DNA of 49,280 bases. Origin: a virus. This document shows, one piece after another, positions 4,542-42,921 of the stretch. The notes beneath the pieces are model-generated. The model saw nothing but the letters and a program-made list of their open reading frames with translations, was not told the origin of the DNA and ran no database searches. The DNA is taken from UHGV virus genome UHGV-0151084, one strand, 5' to 3'. A program made the translations under genes and the position numbers. Position 1 is the first letter of the stretch. Each line of letters begins with the position of its first letter.

Positions 4542-5543
4542 TTAATACCCATTAATTACTCTTCGGACATCAATCGAGGTGGTATAACCACTAGCCCCAA
4601 TTGAATGCACAGCTTTCGATATAAGATATTTTCCAGAAAATGAACCGAATCCGTCCAGATTTATAGTTACACCAGCTACCAATCTGGTGTCTCCAACCAA
4701 TACTAAAGATCCTGTATTTTGATATCTATTTTTAAGCCGCAAAGCAGCCTTTGCCTTACGTTTTGCTTCATCTAAATTAGCTACCAGTTTTCTTATCTTA
4801 AGATTCGACCCTTCTTCTACGGATGGATCTACCCAAGTATACGAAAGCGACTTTCTTTTTTTAGGTACGCGATATTTGCACGTGCAACTTTTATACAAAT
4901 CTGTAGATTGTGTGCTAAAGCTATATCTGATTATCTCATCAATACCTAACGTAAGCGTAGCGATAGGATCTTTTTGCTCAAACATCTCTTGAGCAAATAT
5001 TATTAATTGGCTATCAGTGACCTTTAACGACAACCCTTCATCCTGGCATAGTCGATGGAGAAATTTTAAATCGCTTTCCTCCATTTGATCTTCACGCGCA
5101 TAATATGGATTACTATCACCATCAATAAGAAACAACAGTTCAAGGTTAGCTAATTTAGCTATAGAGGTTGCTATATCTTTAAGAGTTGTTTTTTCCCATG
5201 CATTACTTTTTAAATCACGTCTAATGCCTGATGAAACAGGAACAGAAACAGCAGTCACCTCAACAACAGAAGGTGGTCCAGAGCAAGTTATGCCATCTAC
5301 CTGGAATTTCCCGCACTCAAGGACGATTTGATTTATAGGCTTAAAGCTCAAATCAATAAAATCACCCTTTTTAGGTGTCCAGTCTCCAGACCATTTCCCA
5401 TCATCATTTTTTAATATAATAGAAATATCATCGACCTGACCATCTTCATTATCTGTATAAGACATTGACAAAACATCAGGTGACATATGAGCGGTAATAT
5501 TTACATTCTGATATATAACATCAAAAAGCGTTTTACGTAACAC
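4542..5543 (-). CDS. Tail protein, gpD-like
   Basis: 333 aa ORF immediately downstream of tape measure and X-like genes, as in P2/Mu-like tail modules. Confidence 0.55.
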   Translation of the reverse strand: MLRKTLFDVIYQNVNITAHMSPDVLSMSYTDNEDGQVDDISIILKNDDGKWSGDWTPKKGDFIDLSFKPINQIVLECGKFQVDGITCSGPPSVVEVTAVSVPVSSGIRRDLKSNAWEKTTLKDIATSIAKLANLELLFLIDGDSNPYYAREDQMEESDLKFLHRLCQDEGLSLKVTDSQLIIFAQEMFEQKDPIATLTLGIDEIIRYSFSTQSTDLYKSCTCKYRVPKKRKSLSYTWVDPSVEEGSNLKIRKLVANLDEAKRKAKAALRLKNRYQNTGSLVLVGDTRLVAGVTINLDGFGSFSGKYLISKAVHSIGASGYTTSIDVRRVINGY

Positions 5544-5751
5544 TATTGCGTCTCCACGGAGGCAAATTGTTTACTGATATTGGCATAACCGGAGCATCAG
5601 GAACTTTAAGAATAATTCCCGCAGAAAAAAGCACCGTAAAGCGGTGCTCAGTATTAGCATCAATAAGAAGATAAGACAGGTACTCATTACCATACAACTT
5701 TAACGCGATACTATCCCATGAGTCCCCTTGAACCGTTCTATAATCATCCAA
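5533..5751 (-). CDS. Tail protein X-like (LysM-like)
   Basis: 72 aa; N-terminal YRTVQGDSWDSIALKLYG resembles LysM-type tail protein X. Confidence 0.55.
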   Translation of the reverse strand: MDDYRTVQGDSWDSIALKLYGNEYLSYLLIDANTEHRFTVLFSAGIILKVPDAPVMPISVNNLPPWRRNSVT

Positions 5752-19832: not shown

Positions 19833-20389
19833 TTTTTAACCGCCATAACACAACAGGTTAAAGAAAACTGTTTAACTTATTGATACTAAAAGAGAAAAAT
19901 GACGATCTTTTTACTCATAAAAAATCACACAAACCAGCATAATCATCTGATTTTATTAAGTTTTTATAAGTAAAAAGGATCTTGAGATGGTGTTTTGGTT
20001 AAAAGATTGGATGTATTTGCATGATTTATAACGATTTTTATCAGAACAACATCACATTGGTTAAAGATCTGCGCGTATCTTGATGATCTAAAAGAAAATT
20101 TTCTACTTTCTTTTTACCAGCACAAATACAGCAAAAAATCACGTTTTCCCGATATTTTTCAATGAGATGAGTAAATTTCTTTTACCGCAACTTTTAACCT
20201 AACTTTTTTCACGTTTAGCTAGCCGAACATCGGGGTTCGAATGACCCGCATCCAACGCTTTTGGCCAGAAGGACCCAATTCTGCCGGACGATGAAACGAT
20301 GCTCGTGCTCCCCCACAGACAGCCAGCGAGCGACGCTACAGAACACAGTGAATACACTCTGCATAACAACACCATCAACCACACGATGA

Positions 20390-23357: not shown

Positions 23358-23768
23358 TTACGCAGGGATCAAACGGAGGCAGCCGTTATTTACCTCAATA
23401 CGAGAGTATTCCGGCTTACCATCAACGATTCCGGTAATGACAAGTTCGCCATCAGATGAGCATTCTTCTTCGTCGTCTTCAAGTACCGCGCCTTCTGGCA
23501 AATCAATACAGGCAAAAACAGGGCAGCCAGGATGACGTTTATCCTCCATCGCAATCAGCATCGACTCACCGAACCACTCTGTGGTAGCACGGCCATCAGC
23601 CGCCTGATAGTGAATCAGATACTGGTTTTCGCCATTTGCATACTGAGCACGGGCTTGAACTTCTCCCCATTCGTCACTGATACGCATTGTTACCAGTTGG
23701 GATAATTCAAACTTAAACGGAACAGACTCTGCACCAATGGCAATCGGTTTATCTTCTTTCTTTTCCAT
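23358..23768 (-). CDS. Hypothetical protein (start moved to internal ATG with AGGTGA RBS)
   Basis: Track ORF 23358..23837; internal Met at 23768 has a good Shine-Dalgarno and a terminator hairpin lies just upstream. Confidence 0.4.
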   Translation of the reverse strand: MEKKEDKPIAIGAESVPFKFELSQLVTMRISDEWGEVQARAQYANGENQYLIHYQAADGRATTEWFGESMLIAMEDKRHPGCPVFACIDLPEGAVLEDDEEECSSDGELVITGIVDGKPEYSRIEVNNGCLRLIPA

Positions 23769-23966
23769 AACATCACCTGAAAATAAAAAGCCCCGCGACA
23801 CCGCGAGGCTGTAAGAGTTACTTTCGATAGAAATCAAGGCGCATTTGCTCCCGCTTAAGCCGAAAAGCTCTCTGCGCCACTAAGATGCGCCACAGGACAC
23901 CAGCAATAACCACCAGCGAGATACAAAAACACACGGCCACAACCATCAGAAAAATGCAAAGACCAT

Positions 23967-24179
23967 TCATGAAACTATCCATTTTTCAATGAATACCTCC
24001 AGTAATATCAAGAGATACGCCGTACCCAGCGCGGTTCCTACCGATATAGCTAAGACAAACCTCAAAGATAACGAGGTGTCTTTCGCTTTTCTCCAGACGT
24101 AAGCGCCAGCCAGAAATACCAACAAATCTCTTATTGGAAGCGGAAACCAGAACAAATCACTCGGCATAAGCACGATCAT
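23967..24179 (-). CDS. Small membrane protein
   Basis: 70 aa, two hydrophobic segments. Confidence 0.3.
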   Translation of the reverse strand: MIVLMPSDLFWFPLPIRDLLVFLAGAYVWRKAKDTSLSLRFVLAISVGTALGTAYLLILLEVFIEKWIVS

Positions 24180-24456
24180 CTTCCGCTGCTGATTTACACG
24201 CCGCAGTTACTGATATATTGATAACCGGTGCGCTAATCGTGATGGACGACGCTGTCGGTTGACGCGATATAACTGAACGATGGCTATCAAGGAAGTCCAC
24301 AATCTCATTCAGGCACTCTTTAGCTGCCTCATCGTGACTTTTTCCGTATGCTTCATGGAGGACTTTCATCCTCATCATTGCTCCGTCACATATAGTCGAA
24401 AGCGCGTAAAGCACATCACTAGCCGCCATTTCTTTTTTGGTGCTTGTCGAAGGCAT
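24157..24456 (-). CDS. Hypothetical protein
   Basis: 99 aa ORF. Confidence 0.35.
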   Translation of the reverse strand: MPSTSTKKEMAASDVLYALSTICDGAMMRMKVLHEAYGKSHDEAAKECLNEIVDFLDSHRSVISRQPTASSITISAPVINISVTAACKSAAEDDRAYAE

Positions 24457-24530
24457 CCCATGTTCTCCTTTGTCTGGATGTAAAAAAGCCCCGGCAATTG
24501 CCGAGGCTCGTTGTTCGTTATCGTTACGGT

Positions 24531-24731
24531 TTAATGCTCGCGTCGTCCGGCGACAACTTCGGATTTGTATTTCAGGTCGCCCAGCAAAAATTGCAGTTTA
24601 AGCATCTTTGCCGCCGTGTAGTTCCCTGATTCCACAACCTCTTTCATGAGGTCATAAACGGCCGCAACATCATCAGCCAGGAACTCTTTGCGTTGCTGCT
24701 CAGTCGCACGTTTGAAGGAAATACGCATCAC
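24531..24731 (-). CDS. Hypothetical protein
   Basis: 66 aa ORF, overlapping stop/start with upstream gene. Confidence 0.3.
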   Translation of the reverse strand: MMRISFKRATEQQRKEFLADDVAAVYDLMKEVVESGNYTAAKMLKLQFLLGDLKYKSEVVAGRREH

Positions 24732-24997
24732 TCATCATCTCCTGCCGCACATACAACCTCACAAAAAACATCAGCGGAATGTTTCTTTTTGAATGAATGG
24801 CGCTCAAAACCGCACTCAATATCAGGCGCAAAAACATCCACCACATACGGTCTTTCAGAATGTTTGTTTTCCCAACGATAAACCGTAGTGACGTTGAAAT
24901 GTTTTAACGCTTCACGGAACTCAACGCTGCCCGTCAGGTTTTTTGAGGTCAGGTATTGCAGGAGGCTTTTTACTACTTCACGGTCTTGTACTTTCAT
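24728..24997 (-). CDS. Hypothetical protein, first gene behind copy 1 of the repeated promoter module
   Basis: 89 aa ORF; ATG preceded by GGAGATAACCCG as in the two other module copies. Confidence 0.45.
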   Translation of the reverse strand: MKVQDREVVKSLLQYLTSKNLTGSVEFREALKHFNVTTVYRWENKHSERPYVVDVFAPDIECGFERHSFKKKHSADVFCEVVCAAGDDE

Positions 24998-25115
24998 CGG
25001 GTTATCTCCGGTTTAGCCAGGGCGGGTATCGCTCGGTTTCGGGTATAACCATAGGAAATTTTTTCCCACCTGTAAAGCAATTTTTATATAAATATATAAT
25101 TATATAATTCTATGC
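24998..25115 (-). promoter_or_regulatory. Repeated promoter/leader module, copy 1
   Basis: About 105 bp near-identical to 32517..32640 and 42106..42225; contains TTTACA, AT-rich palindrome and conserved leader ending in RBS. Confidence 0.6.
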
Positions 25116-25697: not shown

Positions 25698-26016
25698 GTT
25701 AGTTGTGTCTCCGGCGCTTATCTCCGGCAGTCATAACGCTGGCCAGCTCTACAGCAAACACAACGAAAAGGGCACTAACCAGACTGATTAATGCCCTTGC
25801 CTGTTGTGTGCCGGATATCGCCCGACAACGCTGTTTTGGTAACACGGCTACAGTTCCGTGCCGCTCCAGCTTTTACCCCTTTGCGGATAACAGGCCCTGC
25901 CTGTAACTTAGCCCCACGTTCGCCCGAAATGCGCACCAGGCACGCATAAAGATGAGCATAAAGATGAGCACGAAGAAGTAACTCCACCGCGCTTATCTTT
26001 ATGTGTGAGAGTGAAT

Positions 26017-26092
26017 TGGTGGCCCCTACCGGATTTGAACCGATGACCGTGCGATTATGAGTCGCCTGCTCTAACCACTGAGCTAAGGGGCC
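26017..26092 (-). tRNA. tRNA with anticodon CAU (tRNA-Ile2 / Met-type), CCA encoded
   Basis: Minus-strand 76 nt GGCCCCTTAGCTCAGTGGTTAGAGCAGGCGACTCATAATCGC...GGGGCCACCA folds as cloverleaf; acceptor, D and anticodon arms match the enterobacterial tRNA-Ile2 pattern as I recall it. Confidence 0.85.
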
Positions 26093-26261
26093 ATATTTGA
26101 TTTGTTTGTCTGGTGTGGCGCCGCGCACGAAAATCCCAGCCAATAAATTCAGGATTTTTGGGCGCGGCGGCATATCAGACAAACATGGTTGATGCGTGCG
26201 CCCATGAGAAAAGCGCATAGAATGTTGTAACTATATATTTATATAATTATAGAAATATATA

Positions 26262-26471
26262 TTACTTTCGGCAGTTGATTTCCCATGCCCTGTTATGAGC
26301 CAGAATATCTTTCTTTGTCTGGCGGTCCATAACATCGATGTCGTGATCAGTCAGGTAGATGGGCTTTACCCAATCACAGGCGGTATCAACCACCACCGGG
26401 ACGCTTCCACGACTCCCGCAGCTCGCGATCAACATCGTCATCAGCCATATGGTTAACACTCTGCTGTACAT
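26262..26471 (-). CDS. Outer-membrane spanin (Rz1-like lipoprotein)
   Basis: 69 aa with signal peptide and lipobox-like LIASC; overlaps the 3' part of the i-spanin in another frame. Confidence 0.6.
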   Translation of the reverse strand: MYSRVLTIWLMTMLIASCGSRGSVPVVVDTACDWVKPIYLTDHDIDVMDRQTKKDILAHNRAWEINCRK

Positions 26472-26664
26472 TCCCCACCTCTTTTGTCACTTCTATACGC
26501 CGCTCCGCAGTGGCTTTTACGGCGGCTGCATTCTCATTAATGCGCTGCTTTTCAGCTTCATCTTCGGCCTTTTCTCGCCCCTTCATACGACCAAAACCAA
26601 ACGCGCCGAATGCAACCAATATAATTGTGCCAATAAATGACAAAACGGCCTTCAAACCAGTCAT
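26386..26664 (-). CDS. Inner-membrane spanin (Rz-like)
   Basis: 92 aa; N-terminal TM helix then charged coiled-coil; downstream of endolysin. Confidence 0.6.
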   Translation of the reverse strand: MTGLKAVLSFIGTIILVAFGAFGFGRMKGREKAEDEAEKQRINENAAAVKATAERRIEVTKEVGNVQQSVNHMADDDVDRELRESWKRPGGG

Positions 26665-27203
26665 ACCACCACTCGCTCTTTCATCCAGCCGTAGACAAAC
26701 GACTCATTAGCCTCGCGCTTCTCCGCCAACTCCAGATAGCGTTCGCCCTGCGTACAGTTCAGCGACGTCAGCATCACCCGTTCGCCGTCTTTTCCCCGAT
26801 TCCCAAGATAAGCACGCAGCGCATTAATGGTACGTGGACCGATTCGTCCGTCTGCATCCAAATCGGGATACAGCTTCCCGCGCAGGTTGAACACATTCAG
26901 CCAGCGTTGAAGCATTTTTGACGCCACTGTTGGCCCCATGTTCACCCCCGTGTCACACAGCTCTGCGGCAATATCAGAGGATAATGCGGCAACCTGATCA
27001 AAGCGTGGTCCGTACCAGTAATCAGCCTCAAGGATTTCCAGTGCCTGTTCGCGGGTTAAATCGCGCATATCGCCACGGTATCCATGAGCACGGGCAGTGC
27101 TCTGAGTAATGCCCCACTTTGTTGGGCCTCCCTTGTCGTCAGGGTGATCCACATAGCCGCCCTCTTTTCCAAGAATGCTGTTAAAAATCTCATCTTTGGT
27201 CAT
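26661..27203 (-). CDS. Endolysin, GH108-like N-terminal domain plus peptidoglycan-binding domain
   Basis: 180 aa; EGGYVDHPDDKGGPTKWGIT motif characteristic of GH108 phage lysozymes. Confidence 0.8.
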   Translation of the reverse strand: MTKDEIFNSILGKEGGYVDHPDDKGGPTKWGITQSTARAHGYRGDMRDLTREQALEILEADYWYGPRFDQVAALSSDIAAELCDTGVNMGPTVASKMLQRWLNVFNLRGKLYPDLDADGRIGPRTINALRAYLGNRGKDGERVMLTSLNCTQGERYLELAEKREANESFVYGWMKERVVV

Positions 27204-27522
27204 GATTAAATCCTAATGCGTCAACTATCCGCGCCAGATTGCCCCTGAAATACAGAACAACGATGCAGATAATCAGATTTCCAATAACCACCAGCCAGTG
27301 GGATTCTTGATAAAGACCGAACACGTAACGGAAGGGAACATTGGCGTATACAATGACGTAGATATAAGCCAGAAAGGAAACAAATGGACGATGCCTTGAG
27401 TCTTTCCGTCGATAAAACATCAGCGCCATTACTATTACTGTGCAAAGCACCGCATTAATCAGTGCTGACGGGTCACTGCTTACCATTTGAACCCCCTCCA
27501 CGTAAGCGGGAAAGCATTCCAA
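27190..27522 (-). CDS. Lysis-associated membrane protein (holin/antiholin-like)
   Basis: 110 aa with 3 predicted TM segments between holin and endolysin. Confidence 0.45.
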   Translation of the reverse strand: MECFPAYVEGVQMVSSDPSALINAVLCTVIVMALMFYRRKDSRHRPFVSFLAYIYVIVYANVPFRYVFGLYQESHWLVVIGNLIICIVVLYFRGNLARIVDALGFNHDQR

Positions 27523-27868
27523 AGATGCTACCGAGATCCTGGCTGTTTACGAACGTGAGGATTTTAATTGTCAATGCAGCCACAATAACCGCACCAAGCG
27601 CATCCAGAGGACGATCGTTGTAGCTGGTCCATTTGGCAAGAAATGAGCCAACTAACGGCGCTCCAATCACTCCAACAATGAACGATGTAAAGAAATAGCC
27701 AATCAGCTTGAGACGGCTAATATTCACCGCTGTAGCAACATAGAAAACAGCGCCAGCAAATGCCCCGAATACAACGCCGTAATCAATACCAGTTGCAATA
27801 CCAAAAACACTGGCACCCATCAGGCCACCAGCAGCAACGGCCGTACCGGAAATTGGTTCTGCTGACAT
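27473..27868 (-). CDS. Putative holin
   Basis: 131 aa, multiple glycine-rich TM helices, first gene of lysis cassette. Confidence 0.55.
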   Translation of the reverse strand: MSAEPISGTAVAAGGLMGASVFGIATGIDYGVVFGAFAGAVFYVATAVNISRLKLIGYFFTSFIVGVIGAPLVGSFLAKWTSYNDRPLDALGAVIVAALTIKILTFVNSQDLGSIFGMLSRLRGGGSNGKQ

Positions 27869-27881
27869 TGAAATCCTCGTT

Positions 27882-27912
27882 AAAAAAAAAGCCCCGCCGA
27901 AAAAGGCAGGGC
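27882..27912 (-). terminator. Rho-independent terminator immediately upstream of lysis cassette
   Basis: Minus-strand RNA hairpin GCCCUGCC/GGCGGGGC (one G-U) followed by U9. Confidence 0.6.
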
Positions 27913-28254
27913 TTCATAAAGCAACAAATTACGCGGTAATCGCTTAACGCAGTTTTACTACGTTAAATGAAACACTACACCCAGTTACCACCTAAAACAA
28001 GGTTTTCCCATAAAAAAACCTTCAAATCGTGGTTAATTGATCAATAAAAAAACAATACTCAACTTTTTACCAAACGAACATCCCGGCCAGGACTTCCATA
28101 ATATTCGCCGATATGCCACTGCTTAAGTTGAGTAATCTTCTCCAACTTAACTCCCACAGAATCCAATTTCTGCCATGTTTTCGGTTGTATGTGCCTCATT
28201 ACCCGCTCTGAATATCTGAATACTGCTCGTAATCGCATGGCTTCTCACTACAGC

Positions 28255-31093: not shown

Positions 31094-31392
31094 GCCACAG
31101 CCCCTCTCAACGGCTTAACTTTGGCTAATAAGGTGTTAAACAACATGGAGTTAGGATTCATGCCAAATGGCAATTCCGGTTTAGCGGAGTAGTACAGGCA
31201 ACCATTTATTTTCCTGGTTGTTATCTGTCCTTCGGCAACCATGCTTCTCAGTCTGCAACGCATAGAGTTCTGCGACACACCAATGTGCTCCGCGATTACG
31301 TCCACTTTTGAACATGGGTGATCGGTCAGGAAATTAATCACATCTTGGGGGTTAATAATTTTGCGTTTCATTGTCGAGGCGTCCTTATACAT
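31090..31392 (-). CDS. Putative winged-helix DNA-binding protein
   Basis: 100 aa; HTH-like segment VDVIAEHIGVSQNSMRCRLRSMVAEGQI. Confidence 0.45.
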   Translation of the reverse strand: MYKDASTMKRKIINPQDVINFLTDHPCSKVDVIAEHIGVSQNSMRCRLRSMVAEGQITTRKINGCLYYSAKPELPFGMNPNSMLFNTLLAKVKPLRGAVA

Positions 31393-31448
31393 TTATATAA
31401 ATATATAATTCTATATACGGCGGGAGACATCCCGCCGTAGGCTTACTG

Positions 31449-32516
31449 TCAGGCTTTCAATAGCGATTCTTTCAGATATCGGGCATCAGCCAGGGCGTTT
31501 GGAGTAATCTTACGAACCCATGCATTACGGGTTGGACTCCACTTAAAGGCGCGTGATTTAAGCAGCGAACGAATGTTTGCCTCTGGTTTGCCAGGGAAAT
31601 AAAACAGGATGCGGTTATCCTCTGGATCTATCTCCATAGAAAAGCCGTCGTATTCTTCGCGCTGTGCTCCTGTTACAGACTTGACCGATTCAAGCTCCTT
31701 AATACGGCTCTGTAGTCGTTTGATTTCGGCCTTATTGTTGCTCAGTGCGTATGAAGGGAATCCGATGTGCCCACAGAAATCTCCGGCCAGTAACTCTTTG
31801 GCTTCGCTTTCTGTAAACCTGAGATCGATTAATGCAGAAAGCTGCTGTAATTGGTCTTTTTTGTATTTGCGAATGGCCTTATTTGCGGCCTTCATTTTGA
31901 CGTGTGACTTCATGCAGCCTTGCAGCTTACGAAGCAACTTAAATAGCGCATCAGGATCATCAGACGAAATTCCATTACGACCAACACCTGCGGCTTTGCT
32001 CTCGTAGTGTGATGCTTTACTTTCGCATTCAACAAACGCTTTTCTGAATAACGCATCAGCTTTAGACAAACGGCGGCGATGGCCTTTCGCGCTATAATGG
32101 TCAACTAAAATCGGCTGGCCTAACGGGATCACATCCAACAGGTCATGCGCTCGCTTATGCGCTACCGCACCTTCTTTTCTGGCTTTTTCTGCACGAGCAA
32201 TATATCGGGCAAGACGCGCGTTCTGGCGTTCCTGATAGGTGTTTACGTAATCATCTCCGCGCTGCTGCTGTTCAAGCCATGCTTTGCGCAGATCTTCTGT
32301 TACGTCCACCAGCTCCGCAGGGATACAACCAGTTTGGGCTTCATAAGAGTAACCATCCTCATAGATGCGCCCATCGTCTTCAACAAAGAAAAAGGTTTCG
32401 TGCTCATCGCTTTTGACCATACGACCATTAACATGGCGTAATAGGTAGCCAGTATCAGTGCTTAACAGGCTGTTAGGGTTGTTGATCCAGTCAGAAATAA
32501 TTACTTGTTTATTCAT
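31449..32516 (-). CDS. Hypothetical protein, first gene behind copy 2 of the repeated promoter module
   Basis: 355 aa ORF; basic central region; identity uncertain. Confidence 0.4.
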   Translation of the reverse strand: MNKQVIISDWINNPNSLLSTDTGYLLRHVNGRMVKSDEHETFFFVEDDGRIYEDGYSYEAQTGCIPAELVDVTEDLRKAWLEQQQRGDDYVNTYQERQNARLARYIARAEKARKEGAVAHKRAHDLLDVIPLGQPILVDHYSAKGHRRRLSKADALFRKAFVECESKASHYESKAAGVGRNGISSDDPDALFKLLRKLQGCMKSHVKMKAANKAIRKYKKDQLQQLSALIDLRFTESEAKELLAGDFCGHIGFPSYALSNNKAEIKRLQSRIKELESVKSVTGAQREEYDGFSMEIDPEDNRILFYFPGKPEANIRSLLKSRAFKWSPTRNAWVRKITPNALADARYLKESLLKA

Positions 32517-32640
32517 CAGATTTCTCCGGTTTAACCAGGGCGGGTATCGCTCGGTTTCGGGTATAACCTTAGGAAATTTTTTCCCACCTGTAAAGCACTT
32601 TTTATATAAATCTATAATTATATATTTATAGATTTTCGAT
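32517..32640 (-). promoter_or_regulatory. Repeated promoter/leader module, copy 2 (directly downstream of Q-like gene)
   Basis: Near-identical to copies at 24998..25115 and 42106..42225. Confidence 0.6.
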
Positions 32641-32685: not shown

Positions 32686-33063
32686 TCACTCTCTTCGCTT
32701 TTTCAAATAGTCGACAACATACGCCCTGGCTTTTGCCAGCTTCCGGCGATACTGTCTGAGACTAAGAGAAAGGGCGTGGGCTTTATCAATATGCGGTGCA
32801 TTTATGTCGAGGCCCCGAATCTCCCACGCCCCGTATTCAATTCGGACAACCAGCGCCGCAGTCTCATCAACTACCGTGAGGGCCGTCACCGCTCCCTCGA
32901 TACTGGTTTCCAGTGAGTCATTTGGTGCGCCGCCCCCTCCGGTAAACTGGCAACGCGTAACCATCATCATTTCTAACATCGACGCGAAACCGCTACGGGC
33001 GTTGCAGCCATTGCGCACCCACAGCGCCCATAGCTCAAACAAGCTATCCAGATCGCGTCTCAC
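32686..33063 (-). CDS. Putative antitermination protein Q-like
   Basis: 125 aa; N-terminal LFELWALWVRNG resembles the LERWGAW pattern of Q-family antiterminators; followed by promoter module. Confidence 0.45.
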   Translation of the reverse strand: MRRDLDSLFELWALWVRNGCNARSGFASMLEMMMVTRCQFTGGGGAPNDSLETSIEGAVTALTVVDETAALVVRIEYGAWEIRGLDINAPHIDKAHALSLSLRQYRRKLAKARAYVVDYLKKRRE

Positions 33064-35036: not shown

Positions 35037-35055
35037 TTAACGAACTCCAGTTAAA

Positions 35056-35173
35056 ACCACGATATGTGGTATTAAAACCACATATCGTGAGTTTTTCAAT
35101 GGGCGAAACAAAAAATAACCTTCTATTTGTGGTCCACCTCTCGTCTTACCATGTGAAAACCACTAAATGTGGT
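35056..35173. promoter_or_regulatory. Immunity operator cluster (ACCAC-N5-GTGGT sites at 35056-35070, 35077-35091, 35159-35173)
   Basis: Three 15-bp inverted-repeat sites in the divergent Cro-like / CI-like intergenic region. Confidence 0.65.
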
Positions 35174-35210
35174 AATGTATAAATAACCCACCATTCACGA
35201 TTGATGAGAC

Positions 35211-35867
35211 ATGAAAAGCAACGACGAGAACATCAAGAAAGAAATAGGTCTGCGCATTCAGACTCTACGGAAACAATCCGGCATGACTGCCGGAGATCTC
35301 CAGCAAGTCACTGGAATAGGCTTAAGCACCTTGCAGAACTATGAGGCCGGATTAAGACAACCATCTATACCTGCCATCAAGAAAATCGCGCACGCCCTGA
35401 AAGCATCAGCGCCTTATATCGCGTGCTTAACAGATAACCCGTTCCCACCCCAGAATACTAACGCTCCTGTTATTCCTGGGCTTGTAGCTATAAAAAATGA
35501 CATAGCATCGCACGCCGGAGAAAAGCCAGTGCTGGCGATAGAACAGGAGATTCTACGAAGCAAGAACATCAACCCATCGTCTCTGTCAGTTCTCCAGAGC
35601 AACGATGAGTTAATGTCACCAACAATATCCCCTGGCTCCCAAGTCCTGATTGATACAGACGATACAGAGATTCATGAGGGGATCTATGCCCTTGAAGACA
35701 GAAATGGCCTGGTTGTTTTGAGGCACTGTAGAGTCATACCGGGTGACAATGCTGTTATGCTGTCAACCGAAAGGGATGCTGAAATGAACACTAAGCATCT
35801 GAATAACGAGGAATTTAAGCGTTATAAAGTTCTTGGCCGCGTAGTTAGTGTTGTCAACTGGTTATGA
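35211..35867 (+). CDS. CI-like repressor (XRE HTH + S24 LexA-like peptidase domain)
   Basis: 218 aa; N-terminal HTH (LQQVTGIGLSTLQNYEAG), C-terminal S24-like region. Confidence 0.8.
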   Translation: MKSNDENIKKEIGLRIQTLRKQSGMTAGDLQQVTGIGLSTLQNYEAGLRQPSIPAIKKIAHALKASAPYIACLTDNPFPPQNTNAPVIPGLVAIKNDIASHAGEKPVLAIEQEILRSKNINPSSLSVLQSNDELMSPTISPGSQVLIDTDDTEIHEGIYALEDRNGLVVLRHCRVIPGDNAVMLSTERDAEMNTKHLNNEEFKRYKVLGRVVSVVNWL

Positions 35868-36334: not shown

Positions 36335-36364
36335 CTGAAAGCGGGCTAACGCCCGCTTATATGA

Positions 36365-36460
36365 TTATAGATTTATATAATTATATAAAACGCTTTTCAT
36401 CCGCCAAAAAGTTGGTTATGCTTACCTCGTTCTATAAATATAGATTTATATAATTATATA
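36365..36460. repeat. AT-rich iterons (ATAGATTTATATAATTATATAA x2) upstream of parA; candidate partition site / operator
   Basis: Two copies at 36365-36390 and 36431-36460; a third between parA and the ParG-like gene at 37141-37170. Confidence 0.5.
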
Positions 36461-36484
36461 ACCAAACACATGGAGTCTCGACAA

Positions 36485-37138
36485 ATGACTATCTCTGTAG
36501 GTATTTTCAACGGAAAAGGCGGCGTAACCAAATCAACAATTGCCCGTGCTTTAGCAGTTGCTTATGCAAAGGCCGGCTGGAATGTATGCCTGATCGATAT
36601 GGATGTGCTTAACGGAACGGTAACGCGTTGGGTACAACGCAGAATGGCCAACAATATCGAACCTGCAATCGCGGCGCAGCCGTGCGGCACGCCATCACAA
36701 GTCCAGAAAATCATCGAATCAGAAGTATACGACCTGGTTATCGTCGATGGCGGTGCCTACGCATCTGAATCAGTACCGAAGCTCTCTGAATTTCTGGATA
36801 TGGTTATTTTGCCAACCAGATTCTCTACCGATGACCTGGAAACCACCGTTAACACAGCTCATGGCATCGTTAAAAAGGGTGTGCCAATCAAGAAAATTTG
36901 CATGGTGTTCTCAGGCGCGGCTGAAAACGAAGCCGACTACATTGAAGCCCAAGAGTACCTGGCTAATACGCCATACTTTGTTGTCGATAAGTACATTCCC
37001 CACAAGCCAGCTCTGAGCAAAGCTCAGGATAAGGGCTTAAGCCTCATTGAATGCTCATACGTTGCGCCACGCAAAAAGGCAGACGACGTTATTCAGGGGA
37101 TTATCAACCAGCTTGAGGCTCTGACTACTGCCGCGTAA
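36485..37138 (+). CDS. parA: ParA-family partition ATPase (small, type Ib-like)
   Basis: Deviant Walker A GKGGVTKST; start placed at ATG 36485 with GGAG RBS. Confidence 0.8.
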   Translation: MTISVGIFNGKGGVTKSTIARALAVAYAKAGWNVCLIDMDVLNGTVTRWVQRRMANNIEPAIAAQPCGTPSQVQKIIESEVYDLVIVDGGAYASESVPKLSEFLDMVILPTRFSTDDLETTVNTAHGIVKKGVPIKKICMVFSGAAENEADYIEAQEYLANTPYFVVDKYIPHKPALSKAQDKGLSLIECSYVAPRKKADDVIQGIINQLEALTTAA

Positions 37139-37181
37139 TATATAATTATAGTTTTATAGATTTATATAAGAGGGGATACAC

Positions 37182-37430
37182 ATGGCCGCACCATCAAAAC
37201 CACCAAAGAAGAACAGCAAAGGCGTACCGCCATCGATCGAACAACCGCAGGTTTTCGACCCGACTGAAACGCCAGCCAGAACCAAATCAGGTGGGGCACA
37301 AATGGCGTTTAACGTCGACCCTGAATTTAAACGCGAGTACAAAACGTTCGCCAGCTCAATGGATATGTCATTGAAAGAAGTGCTGACAAAATCTTTTGAG
37401 TTACTCAAGGCTCAATACAACCAGAAGTAA
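37182..37430 (+). CDS. ParG-like ribbon-helix-helix partition protein
   Basis: 82 aa, basic disordered N-terminus and C-terminal RHH-like segment, directly after parA. Confidence 0.5.
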   Translation: MAAPSKPPKKNSKGVPPSIEQPQVFDPTETPARTKSGGAQMAFNVDPEFKREYKTFASSMDMSLKEVLTKSFELLKAQYNQK

Positions 37431-37652: not shown

Positions 37653-37676
37653 AAAAAAGGCCCCCGAAGGGGCCTA
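37653..37676. terminator. Hairpin terminator (GGCCCC-CGAA-GGGGCC) with A/T runs
   Basis: Perfect 6-bp GC stem; T-run on minus strand. Confidence 0.55.
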
Positions 37677-38096
37677 ATCGCTACTTGCTGCTAATGTTTA
37701 TCGTCACATTCAGAGCGTTATCAGTAATCTTCCAACCCTCCCCATGTGGCGTAAACAAAGCTCCAGTAACAACGATAAAAATACACATACAGTATTTTTT
37801 CATTGTATGGCCCTTACAGGCCGTTTCACGGCATCCCCACCGACGAAAACAACGCGAGAGCAAGCACGGCTGCTTGTGCTTGCATGTACGGCAACAGGAA
37901 ATCCTCCCCTAAAGTCGGTGCCCGGGTGCGAATCGGCGGGAAGGTCCACAGGTATTTTACGATTATTTTAAGATTAGTAATAGGAAAGAAATTAAACGAA
38001 AAAAACAGTTTATTTTCACAAAATCAGTAACCTACCCACAATCTGTGAGTTTGCTGACACAACAAGAACCACAATTTTTTGATGTATAATAGTGGA

Positions 38097-38291: not shown

Positions 38292-38396
38292 TGAATGCGC
38301 CATTGGTGGACACTTTCCGAGCCGTAGCAAAATCTACGGTCGGGATTAGCCTCCTGAATAACACGATGGCGCATACCGCGTTAGCGGTTTTTTTAT
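38292..38396 (+). ncRNA. Candidate structured RNA upstream of antirepressor operon
   Basis: TTGAC at 38286, internal hairpin CCGTAG/CTACGG, terminator ACCGC-GTTA-GCGGT + T7; shares GATTAGCCTC with the downstream leader. Confidence 0.3.
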
Positions 38397-38556
38397 GCGT
38401 AGAGCACTGTTACGCCCAAATTATGGTGGGTCGTACAGGGGCGGAGAAATCCGCGCCGGTTCGTCATTGTGTCCGGTAAGGCTAACCCTGTACGGCTCAC
38501 CACCATTTGATTAGCCTCGAATGGCGGTGATAGTTCCATATACTGGAGATATCACA

Positions 38557-38748
38557 ATGACAAACCTACCCCATGACTATTACGTCAACCTCGTAAAGAT
38601 CCTTCTCAAGAAAGCCTCATACGCCGATAAATTCCGCCTGGCTGAAATCATCGAGCGCGAAGCTATGCGCATCGCCAGCAACGATAACGCTGTTTCTGAC
38701 GCAAAAATCTCCCTCGTAACCAAAGTAGTTATGGGAGGTGCAAAATGA
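38557..38748 (+). CDS. Small protein translationally coupled to antirepressor
   Basis: ATG 38557 with GGAG RBS; stop overlaps antirepressor start (ATGA). Confidence 0.4.
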   Translation: MTNLPHDYYVNLVKILLKKASYADKFRLAEIIEREAMRIASNDNAVSDAKISLVTKVVMGGAK

Positions 38749-40013
38749 AAACGCTTCCGACCGTTAACACCCTACAGCCTATCCTGCATAACCAAATCCC
38801 TGTCATTACTACCGAGTTACTGGCACAGCTTTACGGCGTATCTCCTGTACGCATTCGACAAAATCATCATGAGAATAAGGAACGCTTCATTGAAGGTAAG
38901 CACTACTTCAAAATTGAAGGTAACGAACTTCGAGAGTTAAAGCACAAAGTGACTCAAGATAATGATGTGAAGAACAAAAACTCTTTAAGAGATTCAGTTA
39001 ATGACGCCCCCTCTAAAAGAGAGAGCGACGAGCACAGAGTAGTTTTAAACTACTCTGTTAACCACAAGGTAACTAAAAGTCACTCTGTGAAAATCGCCCG
39101 TAACGTTCGCTCCCTCATTCTCTGGACAGAACGCGGGGCTGCACGTCACGCCAAAATGCTTGAAACTAACCAAGCGTGGGATGTGTTCGAACGGCTGGAA
39201 GACTGCTACTTCAACCAGAACGCGCAAACGGCCGCGACCGTAACCGTCTCGCCAAACAATGCTCGTGAGGTTGTCGATACGCTCAACGCCAAACCGATGT
39301 TTTACATTAAGGTGTGCAATAACGAGCCACTCACAACCTCGGCCGATGTTGCCCAGGCATTCAGCACCACAAACAATTCCATCGTTATGGCCATCGATGC
39401 GTTACGCATTCCTCGCACAGCTGCGGCGCGTCATTTCTTTAAAGAGCAACGACCGTTGGAAGGAAGCGACCGCGAAATAACAATCTATCGCATGACAAAA
39501 GACGGATTTACCTTGCTCATGGAGAGCATCGACGGTCCAGGCGTAAAAGATATCAAGCTGGCCTACATTGAAGCCTTTAACGCTATCAGCAGCGTGTTAA
39601 AAACACAGTACGAGCGTGATCTGGCTAAACGACTGTACCAAGAAAAAACGATTATCCGCGCGGCAACAGAGCATAATCGGCTATTAACGGAACCGAACTA
39701 CCGCAAGACACTAATCAAAGAGTTTGACAAGGCGACGGAGAAAACTAAAGCGGCGCTAAGTCTGCCAGCAATGACTCAGGAAAATGTGATATCAGCCTTA
39801 CTTCTTGATCTGCTCAGGAACGCCAGAGCACTTATCAGCTTTGACGAGGACCTGAATCCTCAGCTCAAGCTACTACCACCGACAGGCAAAGTAGTCGACC
39901 AGGCTGATCACAACAGCATACTCAGCGTTCTGGATGCAAACCTGCCAGCCAGGACACTACAGGATCTGATAAAAACATGTGCTGATAAGCTGGCACAGAA
40001 AAGCAGACCATAA
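38745..40013 (+). CDS. Antirepressor (ORF6N-type N-terminal + Rha-type C-terminal domains)
   Basis: 422 aa; N-terminal IPVITTELLAQLYGVSPVRIRQNHHENKERFIEGKHYFKIEG; central TTSADVAQAF...TIYRMTKDGFTLLM resembles Rha. Confidence 0.7.
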   Translation: MKTLPTVNTLQPILHNQIPVITTELLAQLYGVSPVRIRQNHHENKERFIEGKHYFKIEGNELRELKHKVTQDNDVKNKNSLRDSVNDAPSKRESDEHRVVLNYSVNHKVTKSHSVKIARNVRSLILWTERGAARHAKMLETNQAWDVFERLEDCYFNQNAQTAATVTVSPNNAREVVDTLNAKPMFYIKVCNNEPLTTSADVAQAFSTTNNSIVMAIDALRIPRTAAARHFFKEQRPLEGSDREITIYRMTKDGFTLLMESIDGPGVKDIKLAYIEAFNAISSVLKTQYERDLAKRLYQEKTIIRAATEHNRLLTEPNYRKTLIKEFDKATEKTKAALSLPAMTQENVISALLLDLLRNARALISFDEDLNPQLKLLPPTGKVVDQADHNSILSVLDANLPARTLQDLIKTCADKLAQKSRP

Positions 40014-41724: not shown

Positions 41725-42105
41725 TTACTTAACGAGGAATAAAAATGGTTTATTGTTCGGCGGTGTAATCGGGGCTGGCTCGCTTTTGCTCATGCGATCA
41801 GTGTACCAGGCCAACTCCTTGTCAAAGTAAGCCTGATTAAAATAGGCCATGAATGTAGTTTCAAATCCATAACGACCGCTAATACGCAGCATCTGATTGC
41901 CGTTCTCTGTTTCCAGATATACCTGGGCACGTTCCTGATTCTCCTTCAGCCAGGTTAAAGCCTCATCGCATGAGGACACACGATACTCATCATCGTAGCA
42001 GTCATCGATGCGGCTTGAGGAAGAACGGCAAATCACGCCAACAGAACCAGCCAGGATAGTTTGAATTTTAAGGAAAGCGTTTTTGCGGATTTTAATCATG
42101 CTCAT
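41725..42105 (-). CDS. Hypothetical protein, gene behind copy 3 of the repeated promoter module
   Basis: 126 aa; N-terminal hydrophobic signal-like segment. Confidence 0.45.
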   Translation of the reverse strand: MSMIKIRKNAFLKIQTILAGSVGVICRSSSSRIDDCYDDEYRVSSCDEALTWLKENQERAQVYLETENGNQMLRISGRYGFETTFMAYFNQAYFDKELAWYTDRMSKSEPAPITPPNNKPFLFLVK

Positions 42106-42225
42106 CGGGTTATCTCCGGTTTAACCAGGGCGGGTATCGCTCGGTTTCGGGTATAACCTTAGGAAATTTTTTCCCACATGTAAAGCACTTTTTATATAAA
42201 TCTATAATTATATAATTCTGTGAGC
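42106..42225 (-). promoter_or_regulatory. Repeated promoter/leader module, copy 3
   Basis: Near-identical to copies 1 and 2; preceded upstream by a terminator at 42227-42254. Confidence 0.6.
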
Positions 42226-42268: not shown

Positions 42269-42568
42269 TCAGATGTTAAACGCTATTCGTTTTCCTGTGG
42301 GAAGCTCAACATCCAGGCTTAATTTGCCTCCCATAGCTTCAACGTAACGCTTTAATGTCGCCAGCTTTAAATCATTTCCGCGCTGCTCCAGCTTTGTTAC
42401 TGCTGGCTGGCTTATACCCATCGCCTCAGCAACCTGTTTTTGTGATAACTGGAGTTCTTCACGCATCATCTGCAAGCCGACCTCAAGAATCATCTCATCT
42501 GCCATTTCTTTAATTCGCGCCTGGCTTTCCGGTGAACGGCTGGCAATCGCCTCATCTAATGTTCTCAT
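42269..42568 (-). CDS. higA: HigA-like HTH antitoxin
   Basis: 99 aa; HTH (LSQKQVAEAMGISQPAVTKLE); start overlaps toxin stop. Confidence 0.65.
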   Translation of the reverse strand: MRTLDEAIASRSPESQARIKEMADEMILEVGLQMMREELQLSQKQVAEAMGISQPAVTKLEQRGNDLKLATLKRYVEAMGGKLSLDVELPTGKRIAFNI

Positions 42569-42921
42569 TACTTGCTCTCCAGTGTGTTCAGATGTGCTGC
42601 AAACTCATCCTCAGCTATACGCACCAGTTTTTCATAAAACCGCTTATCGTTACTTTTGTCTCCTGCACAAAGAACGATGGCCCGGCGAATCGGATCGAAC
42701 GCATAAAAGGCTCTTATCGGACGGCCAGAAAACTGAACGCGAAGCTCTTTCATATTTTTGTACCGAGAACCTTTTACGGTATCGGCATATGGCCTAGGTA
42801 ACTCAGGTCCGTAAACCTGTAGCTTTTTCAAATCAGCCAAAACCTTTTCCTGAAGAGCGTCTTCTTGCTCATTTAGCCAGTCGTCAAATCGCTGGCTAAA
42901 AAGTACCGTCCACATGCTCAA
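42568..42921 (-). CDS. higB: HigB/RelE-family toxin (addiction-module killer)
   Basis: 117 aa; toxin-upstream-of-antitoxin arrangement; C-terminal region resembles RelE/ParE-superfamily killers. Confidence 0.65.
   Translation of the reverse strand: MSMWTVLFSQRFDDWLNEQEDALQEKVLADLKKLQVYGPELPRPYADTVKGSRYKNMKELRVQFSGRPIRAFYAFDPIRRAIVLCAGDKSNDKRFYEKLVRIAEDEFAAHLNTLESK

Follow-up and report, generated by a model that had tools for sequence, protein, structure and literature searches.

How are genes expressed whose ribosome-binding sites (RBSs) directly follow a transcription terminator? The question is raised by the virus genome UHGV-0151084, a stretch of 49,280 bp (the window), in which the holin gene and two further genes of the minus strand are each preceded by a hairpin and a U-run, termed here T1, T2 and T3 (Table 1). 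The original prediction, made from the letters alone, held that these terminators sit directly in front of late genes, that the gaps leave no room for a promoter, that the downstream genes therefore need read-through, and that a Q-like protein encoded by the open reading frame (ORF) 32686..33063 fits this picture. We find that antitermination across T1–T3 by this protein, a likely homologue of the Q protein of phage 21 (Q21), is the best available explanation, to which we give a probability of roughly 0.55.

The T1 stem-loop, GAAGCCCUGCC-UUUUUC-GGCGGGGCUUU, has a predicted folding energy of −20.5 kcal/mol (z = −4.97) and ends 19 nt before the holin ATG at 27868, with the RBS GAGGA in between. 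T2 (GAGCCUCGGC-AAUU-GCCGGGGCUU, tail UUUUUUACAU; −18.8 kcal/mol, z = −6.2) lies 29 nt from the ATG at 24456 of ORF 24157..24456, and T3 (AGCCUCGCG-GUGU-CGCGGGGCU, tail UUUUUAUUUU; −16.6 kcal/mol, z = −4.85) lies 20 nt from the ATG at 23768 of ORF 23358..23768. For each of the three, none of 200 shuffled sequences folded as well. All have the sequence hallmarks of an intrinsic terminator, i.e. a G+C-rich stem, a short loop and a U-run directly after it, and all are unidirectional, as no U-run follows the hairpin on the plus strand. They are the three top-ranked terminator-like matches between 19 and 38 kb. When at least seven base pairs, at least five of them G-C, were demanded, the minus-strand gene string running from 35036 to 1443 (33.6 kb, 52 ORFs), which holds all genes relevant here, yielded five co-directional matches: T1, T2, T3, a U-poor hairpin at 25798-25768 and a hairpin at 5649-5629. 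As the enrichment of terminator-like matches overall is no more than modest (32, with 19.5 ± 4.5 in shuffled sequence), the case rests on the strength, position and conservation of T1–T3 and not on counts. Judged by these features, T1–T3 are probably functional intrinsic terminators, and they may well be efficient in vivo.

With just 19–29 nt from stem to start codon, all taken up by the U-run and the RBS, there is no room for a promoter between hairpin and gene; indeed, no −35/−10 pair could be accommodated in any of the three gaps, and promoters overlapping the hairpins with a start site downstream of them were looked for and none was found. Folding and shuffling thus bore out the presence of terminators on the coding strand before the holin gene, 24157..24456 and 23358..23768, and the lack of promoter room was likewise confirmed.

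The window is a complete or near-complete temperate phage kept as a circular plasmid. Across the region of interest it is 96–98% identical to the Yersinia phages vB_YpM_39, 41 and 44, and its identity to circular plasmids of E. coli with a length of some 48 kb, NZ_AP022814 among them, is 95–99%. The block upstream of the holin gene is found in 70 of 5,426 complete E. coli genomes, where 71 of its 72 occurrences are plasmid-borne, among them one on the 48,488-bp plasmid of ATCC 25922. The lambdoid-prophage setting implied by the original prediction has to be abandoned in view of these plasmid relatives and of a ParA gene in the window. A literature search on this phage-plasmid family returned nothing useful.

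T1 is identical or nearly identical in the 70 E. coli phage-plasmids, and in all 70 it remains attached to the holin gene together with the 190 nt upstream of it, while the genes beyond differ from one relative to another (breakpoints 28061, 28201 and 28231). More diverged relatives, gathered via homologues of the Q-like protein, keep the layout. A strong terminator lies 20–29 nt before the holin gene in L004, L016, L017 and L020 and 59–62 nt before it in L013 and L014; the homologue of 23358..23768 has a terminator 20–25 nt upstream in L014 and L022, and the same arrangement recurs in L013. Despite their shared position, the hairpin sequences of these relatives are unrelated to each other. 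L014 lacks T2, close relatives differ in what fills the slot from T2 to T3, and the cargo behind T2 differs in NZ_AP022814. Outside the family, the gene behind T3 (phrog_1935) is preceded by a terminator in only four of 31 distinct upstream sequences, which makes T3 a trait of the phage-plasmid group and not of the gene. Within the family, the terminator-before-gene layout is one that has been selected.

Holins 82% identical to that of the window are encoded on prophage contigs of some 40 kb. Of the 49 distinct sequences upstream of these holin genes, 39 have a terminator no more than 90 nt from the start codon, typically at 46–50 nt, and at least nine different stem sequences are used. The gene upstream in these prophages is a true Q gene, with PF03589 in L118 and PF06530 plus DUF1133 in L153, and in L118 a pR'-like promoter is followed by terminators. 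Because such close holin homologues follow terminators downstream of bona fide Q genes, T1 and the holin gene look like a lambdoid tR'-holin module. The stem motif CCCTGCC...GGCGGGG of T1 also occurs in the lambdoid tR' of L118; we dropped it as a sign of common descent, as a scan of IMG/VR returned at least 120 stretches with this generic motif.

The 125-aa Q-like protein matched phrog_5285. A Pfam search and a phmmer search against the PDB gave no match, and the NCBIfam model NF051483 (PA0613_fam) was matched over its full length at 21.3 bits (E = 2.5e-4), below the cut-off of 100. An exhaustive profile search gathered 130 cluster representatives at E ≤ 0.001. When a profile of 111 members was compared with the PDB, the first match was phage 21 Q (E = 1.9e-5; residues 5–92 against Q21 residues 12–96), whereas a profile of close homologues gave only a marginal helix-turn-helix match to Tc3 transposase. 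Eleven of the 111 members touch PF06530 and 56 match PA0613_fam below its cut-off (best E = 6.7e-9). AlphaFold models reached a confidence (pLDDT) of 77.5 with 18 sequences and 87.1 with 111, and their top Foldseek matches were Q21 (probability 0.98, TM-score 0.50–0.55). The most conserved stretch of the protein, GFASMLEMMMVTRCQF.GGGG.P.D (residues 25–49), is the least confidently modelled one, and in the alignment its residues, given there as 24–46, fall on the part of Q21 that changes fold to build the 'nozzle' at the RNA exit (10.1101/651190). Q21 itself combines a sigma-region-4-like fold and an additional helix at the N-terminus (10.1101/651190; PMC6606751), and given this fold the pattern of search results is what one expects for a small Q21 relative. 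Homology to Q21 is therefore likely, although the protein scores far below the Pfam threshold and lies outside formal PF06530 membership. The predicted Q-like identity thus gains from the family profile and two structure searches, all pointing to Q21, and is weakened by the missing Pfam match. The gene is 4.7 kb upstream of T1, and accessory genes fill the stretch between them. By its kinship the protein would be an antiterminator.

The position of the gene is in keeping with such a role. In every relative examined, it belongs to the early operon, which is divergent from the repressor gene, and is found after genes for a Ref-like nuclease and a DUF1064 protein and several kb upstream of the lysis genes. 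The distant members L184 and L185 (41–43% identity), on integrase-bearing contigs of about 37–38 kb, have the same gene order, and there a promoter-like stretch is followed by a strong terminator 24–33 nt before the first late or lysis gene. Three further distant members lie on contigs too short to give a gene context.

A promoter-like element is indeed found directly downstream of the Q-like gene. It is one of three minus-strand copies (A, D and G; 87–95% identity) of a 121-nt cassette, in which three or four AT-rich 8-bp repeats (TTATATAA / TTATAGAT) are followed by TTTACA-N17-TA(A/T)GGT and a shared 5' untranslated region (5'UTR) that ends exactly at the ATG of three unrelated genes. The cassette core resembles the promoter-like element before the terminator of L184 (TTTCCTCTATGGTTGAC compared with TTTCCTATGGTTATAC). 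Each copy is followed by one or more genes and then a hairpin: the one at 31437-31415 after copy A (−19 kcal/mol, U-poor tail), T2 after copy D, and 41717-41689 after copy G. In its spacer, the cassette has a small palindrome, GGAAA-N3-TTTCC, that L013 and L014 retain except for a different centre.

Copy D, situated between T1 and T2, is followed by 24728..24997, 24531..24731 and T2, with T2 and T3 located 0.5–1.2 kb downstream of it. As this candidate promoter intervenes, T1–T3 do not belong to one uninterrupted operon reaching from the Q-like gene to the late genes, and T2 can at the same time be read as the 3' end of a promoter-gene-terminator unit; T3 perhaps also closes a promoter-bearing accessory unit. 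The claim that the downstream genes need read-through is thus supported in part, and it has to be qualified by copy D for the stretch between T1 and T2.

The 8-bp-period repeats of the cassette are part of a wider set of AT-rich iterons, which form eight arrays (14 copies) at seven intergenic sites, with 30 matches to the motif where 2.1 are expected. They are oriented toward the downstream gene and contain TATAAT-like hexamers; two arrays lie upstream of parA and one downstream. At the corresponding sites, relatives have either this motif (TATAAATATATAA) or a variant (AATAAATATTTAA). In six of 11 loci, an iteron cluster begins no more than about 30 nt after the stop codon of the Q-like gene; in the window it begins after 54 nt, and in L013 and L014 after about 450 nt. 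Moreover, an iteron cluster lies no more than 18 nt upstream of the holin terminator in L004, L016, L017 and L020, and in L002 and L019 a cluster abuts a terminator upstream of the lysis region; in L002, one array, a promoter-like match and a terminator fall within about 100 nt, the classic pR'-tR' layout. A sequence that follows iteron site C of the window, GTTACAACATTCTATGCGC, recurs in L004 and L019.

The type of iteron motif co-varies with the recognition helix of the Q-like protein, while overall identity does not separate the groups. The first motif goes with both subgroups that have a DKAHAL..LSLR.Y.RKLAKAR helix, the second with a DKA(V/A)(K/A)L..SLNQY.RKL(N/K)KAR or a GKSAAM..PLIRYRRKLEKAR helix. 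By contrast, the β-strand of the ParG-like ribbon-helix-helix protein encoded by 37182..37430 does not co-vary with iteron type; as two groups with one iteron type have different β-strands, the ParG-like protein appears less likely as the iteron binder. In phage 21, the two 21Q binding (QBE) subsites are spaced 8 bp apart (PMC6606751). This spacing, together with the helix co-variation, makes the iterons the best candidates for the loading sites of the Q-like protein, on what we consider a thin sequence-based case.

From the terminators, their positions and conservation, the Q21 homology, the repeated cassette and the iterons, we infer antitermination and the place of loading as follows. In the plasmid-prophage state, T1–T3 would keep transcription initiated upstream from reaching the lethal lysis genes and the genes beyond them. 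Upon induction, the early operon, starting near 35.1 kb, would produce the 125-aa Q21-like protein, which would bind DNA via its sigma-region-4-like helix-turn-helix, most likely at the iterons present at several promoters, including the cassette after its own gene. From there, it would load onto RNA polymerase and render it resistant to hairpin terminators, so that transcripts cross T1 into the genes for holin, endolysin and spanin and, further on, cross T2 and T3 in the direction of the genes for ParB-like, terminase and structural proteins. Since neither an iteron nor a promoter adjoins T1, read-through at this terminator would need polymerase that has been modified 3.5–4.7 kb upstream, at iteron site B or cassette A, a distance that should be within reach of Q-type processive antitermination.

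Several observations weigh against this scheme. The nearest candidate loading sites are indeed 3.5 and 4.7 kb upstream of T1, and the place next to T1 that iterons or a promoter might occupy in the window is taken by a structured block. A sigma-dependent pause element was not found in the cassette 5'UTR, where the best match, GATACC, agrees at three of six positions and lacks the final T. The iterons precede the −35-like hexamer, whereas the binding subsites of phage 21 are placed between −35 and −10, and those iterons that flank parA (36357-36461 and 37138-37177) would fit a partition or operator role. The co-variation of iterons and helix comes from 11 related loci in three sequence groups. 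Finally, the structural genes could have a promoter of their own in an AT-rich gap at 19833-20389.

The main rival account does without a dedicated antiterminator. In it, the hairpins are leaky 3' ends of upstream accessory units (morons or mosaic borders), partial read-through supplies the downstream genes with enough transcription, and the 125-aa protein is a sigma-region-4-like regulator that activates or represses the iteron promoters. The promoter-gene-terminator make-up of cassettes A, D and G, the variable T2–T3 slot and the lack of T2 in L014 speak for it, as do the membrane-like peptides encoded by the small ORFs between T2 and T3 and the overlap of iterons with −10-like hexamers and the parA promoter region. 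However, T1 travels with the holin gene and not with the variable genes upstream, and terminators are kept exactly before the holin gene and the 23358..23768 homologue in the face of complete sequence turnover. A terminator with nine U residues and about −20 kcal/mol is unlikely to be very leaky, the iteron or promoter-like elements directly upstream of the holin terminator in relatives make sense only if termination is regulated, and the N-terminal half of the protein matches Q21 specifically, beyond the sigma-region-4 part. We consider this account unlikely, though worth keeping in mind.

Phage morons invite a comparison. Copy D with two small genes and T2 has a moron-like layout, and so has each of the cassettes A and G when the hairpin after it is included; the slot between T2 and T3 is variable among relatives. 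Unlike in morons, T1 and T3 go with the gene that follows them in the relatives and not with the cargo that precedes them, and a single 121-nt promoter module is common to the three cassettes, which points to co-regulation more than to separate acquisitions.

The structured block directly upstream of T1 raises the question of whether T1 serves another purpose. The stretch 28061-27879 folds with −50.2 kcal/mol (z = −5.5), and the Rfam model RF00022 (GcvB) matches 27883-28040 on the minus strand over its full length (35.8 bits, below the gathering score of 42; E = 2.4e-6 in a 501-nt search), with the GU-rich stretch GGUGUAGUGUUUCA aligned to the GcvB seed region and the match ending in T1. T1 could thus chiefly terminate a GcvB-like small regulatory RNA (sRNA) made from this block, its position before the holin gene being secondary, and the retention of the well-folding block in all 70 E. 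coli family members would agree with this. Nevertheless, the score stays below the gathering threshold, and layouts of hairpins plus terminator draw many weak matches to sRNA models, e.g. Spot 42 and STnc100. Reading the 190 nt upstream of T1 disclosed no canonical sigma-70 promoter, and conservation starts at 28061, too near the predicted 5' end for a −35 element. Nor would an sRNA account for T2 and T3. We therefore regard it as improbable that sRNA termination is the chief role of T1. Two weak promoter candidates upstream of T1, TTGAGT-N18-AATTAA and TTAACC-N18-TATGGG, were rejected, and an isrJ-like match over T2 (E = 0.85) was dismissed as chance. A BLAST search of the T1 block against phage genomes returned the three Yersinia family members only, so that the block is peculiar to the family.

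The block can be compared with the short pR'-tR' RNAs of lambdoid and Stx phages, such as lambda 6S RNA and StxS, in that a conserved structured non-coding stretch ends at a terminator directly before lysis genes. Unlike those RNAs, it has no identified promoter at its 5' end, and its likeness to GcvB is sub-threshold.

The several stable hairpins predicted in the block might alternatively mediate read-through themselves, as a cis-acting RNA like HK022 put; an N-like factor, for which the many small early proteins without assigned function leave room, or translation-coupled suppression would be further mechanisms of this kind. On the other hand, no Rfam family was matched, T2 and T3 lack a comparable upstream structure, and the family as a whole has a Q21-like protein encoded at a syntenic position, so that an additional read-through mechanism is unnecessary. 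Such mechanisms are, in our estimate, very improbable, still more so than the sRNA.

Antitermination by the Q21-like protein would be known biology in kind, and the system looks like a rearranged version of the late-gene switch of lambda rather than a new kind. As in the lambdoid Q switches of phages 21, 82 and lambda, a strong intrinsic terminator precedes the holin gene with no promoter between them, and an early-operon protein has a Q21-type sequence and fold. Further parallels are a promoter-like element shortly after the Q-like gene, holins that follow tR' in Q-bearing prophages and closely resemble that of the window, and candidate binding repeats with the 8-bp spacing of the 21Q subsites. 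The differences lie in the low PF06530 score and remote gene of the window protein, in a promoter-like cassette present in three copies with repeats upstream of its −35-like hexamer, in the pause element, which was not found in the cassette 5'UTR, and in the host element, a circular phage-plasmid that has a contractile tail and encodes a ParA system along with a P1-like c4/ant module. New here are the protein family assignment, the triple cassette and the co-variation of iterons and helix.

The 56 family members that match PA0613_fam connect the Q-like protein to the PA0613 family of Pseudomonas aeruginosa, whose gene lies just upstream of the holin gene in the R/F-pyocin cluster; like AlpA of the same species, these are small helix-turn-helix proteins encoded upstream of lysis genes. 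In contrast to this likeness, the window protein itself scores 21 bits against the cut-off of 100, and AlpA belongs to another sequence family. Antitermination goes unmentioned in the 11 papers found to name PA0613, and a passage in this literature groups it with adjacent regulatory genes. It is conceivable, if doubtful, that the 125-aa protein represents a large overlooked branch of Q21-type antiterminators, with at least 130 cluster representatives at E ≤ 0.001, linked to PA0613 and loaded via iterons at about seven promoters, including that of the partition operon. A single protein would in that case link read-through at the terminators of lysis and late genes with the control of plasmid maintenance, and PA0613 would be a predicted antiterminator of the R/F-pyocin operon.

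Should antitermination across T1–T3 hold true, the textbook Q/tR' late switch would extend to a family of roughly 48-kb phage-plasmids that includes a plasmid of the reference strain ATCC 25922 and has also been recovered as infectious Yersinia phages, and a widespread hypothetical family related to phage 21 Q and PA0613 would be given a function. Strong terminators placed against the RBS of the lethal holin gene could then insulate it from accessory-gene promoters during plasmid maintenance. The repeated cassette and the iterons offer concrete and cheap experimental targets.

Table 1. Features of the window, grouped by terminators, regulatory elements and genes
Feature	Position	Strand	Remarks
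T1 intrinsic terminator	27879..27915	−	stem 27915-27888, 11 bp, 7 G-C pairs, 6-nt loop, U9 at 27887-27879
T2 intrinsic terminator	24480..24509	−	stem 24509-24486, 10 bp, 7 G-C pairs, U6
T3 intrinsic terminator	23780..23810	−	stem 23810-23789, 9 bp, 7 G-C pairs, U5AU4
Conserved non-coding block upstream of T1	27916..28061	−	several predicted hairpins
Cassette copy A	32512..32632	−	TTTACA-N17-TAAGGT; 5'UTR to ATG of 31449..32516; 54 nt after stop of Q-like gene
Cassette copy D	24994..25114	−	TTTACA-N17-TATGGT; between T1 and T2
Cassette copy G	42102..42222	−	upstream of 41725..42105; preceded by terminator 42254-42232
Iteron arrays	25076-25115, 26223-26270, 31377-31416, 32602-32633, 36357-36388, 36422-36461, 37138-37177, 42192-42223
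Iteron site B	31377..31416	−	after hairpin 31437-31415, before next gene; matches post-Q iteron site of L004, L016, L017, L022
Iteron site C	26223..26270	−	just downstream of lysis cassette
Q21-like (sigma region 4-like) protein gene, 125 aa	32686..33063	−	last conserved gene of early operon
Early promoter/operator region	35037..35210		between XRE-S24 repressor gene and minus-strand early operon; −35 TTGAAA, −10 TTTAAT
XRE-S24 repressor gene	35211..35867	+
ParA	36470..37138
Lysis cassette	26386..27868	−	phrog_198, phrog_217, phrog_315, phrog_1026
Holin	27473..27868	−	phrog_198
Second holin	27190..27522	−	phrog_217
Endolysin	26661..27203	−
Spanin (Rz-like)	26386..26664	−
Gene behind T3	23358..23768	−	136 aa, phrog_1935, no functional annotation
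P1/P7 immI-like (c4-icd-ant) module beside partition genes	37653-37949, 38321-38394, 38419-38507, 38521-40013	−, +, +, +

As to the genes behind the terminators, T1 precedes an established late gene, that of the holin. T2 precedes 24157..24456 (99 aa, without functional annotation) and two small membrane-like ORFs, and beyond T3 follow ParB/Srx-like genes, a 557-nt gap and then the genes for the small and large terminase, portal, capsid and tail. The proposal that the terminators stand before late genes accordingly holds for the holin gene; the small proteins behind T2 and T3 have no functional annotation, and their genes would be late by position alone. The gap at 19833-20389 is AT-rich and GATC-rich, has no good ORF and is flanked by a gene for a 'minor tail protein'-like product and by the ParB/Srx and small-terminase genes. 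Possible roles for it are those of a replication origin, a packaging site and a separate late promoter.

A tRNA-Met gene (annotated as tRNA-Ile in a close relative) lies at 26017-26092 on the minus strand, with the lysis cassette on one side and a gene for an MT-A70 methyltransferase on the other, and the 14-bp hairpin at 25768-25798 (minus strand), with its poor U-run, comes after it. The minus-strand hairpin at 5629-5649 (8 bp, followed by UUUUUUCUG; −12.2 kcal/mol, z = −3.55) sits inside the tail operon, between the tape-measure gene and 4542..5543 and within a possible ORF of 72 aa.

Two long palindromes with CCACAT/ATGTGG half-sites, at 35057-35090 and 35150-35180, overlap the early promoter; they probably serve the XRE-S24 repressor as operators and differ from the AT-rich iterons. 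Apart from ParA, the window encodes several ParB/Srx-like proteins, a tail sheath and a tape measure. Above threshold, Rfam models for ryfA, isrK and C4 antisense RNA matched directly upstream of a 75-aa ORF and a 422-aa antirepressor gene, within the P1/P7 immI-like module. A toxin-antitoxin-like pair on the minus strand (42269-42921), comprising a 117-aa toxin (phrog_3445) and a 99-aa helix-turn-helix protein, ends in the terminator 42254-42232, and cassette copy G comes directly after it. At the left end of the window, 445-837 holds three tandem-like copies of a 93-nt repeat (73–84% identity) in a region where ORFs on both strands overlap; this may be a repetitive tail-fibre segment.

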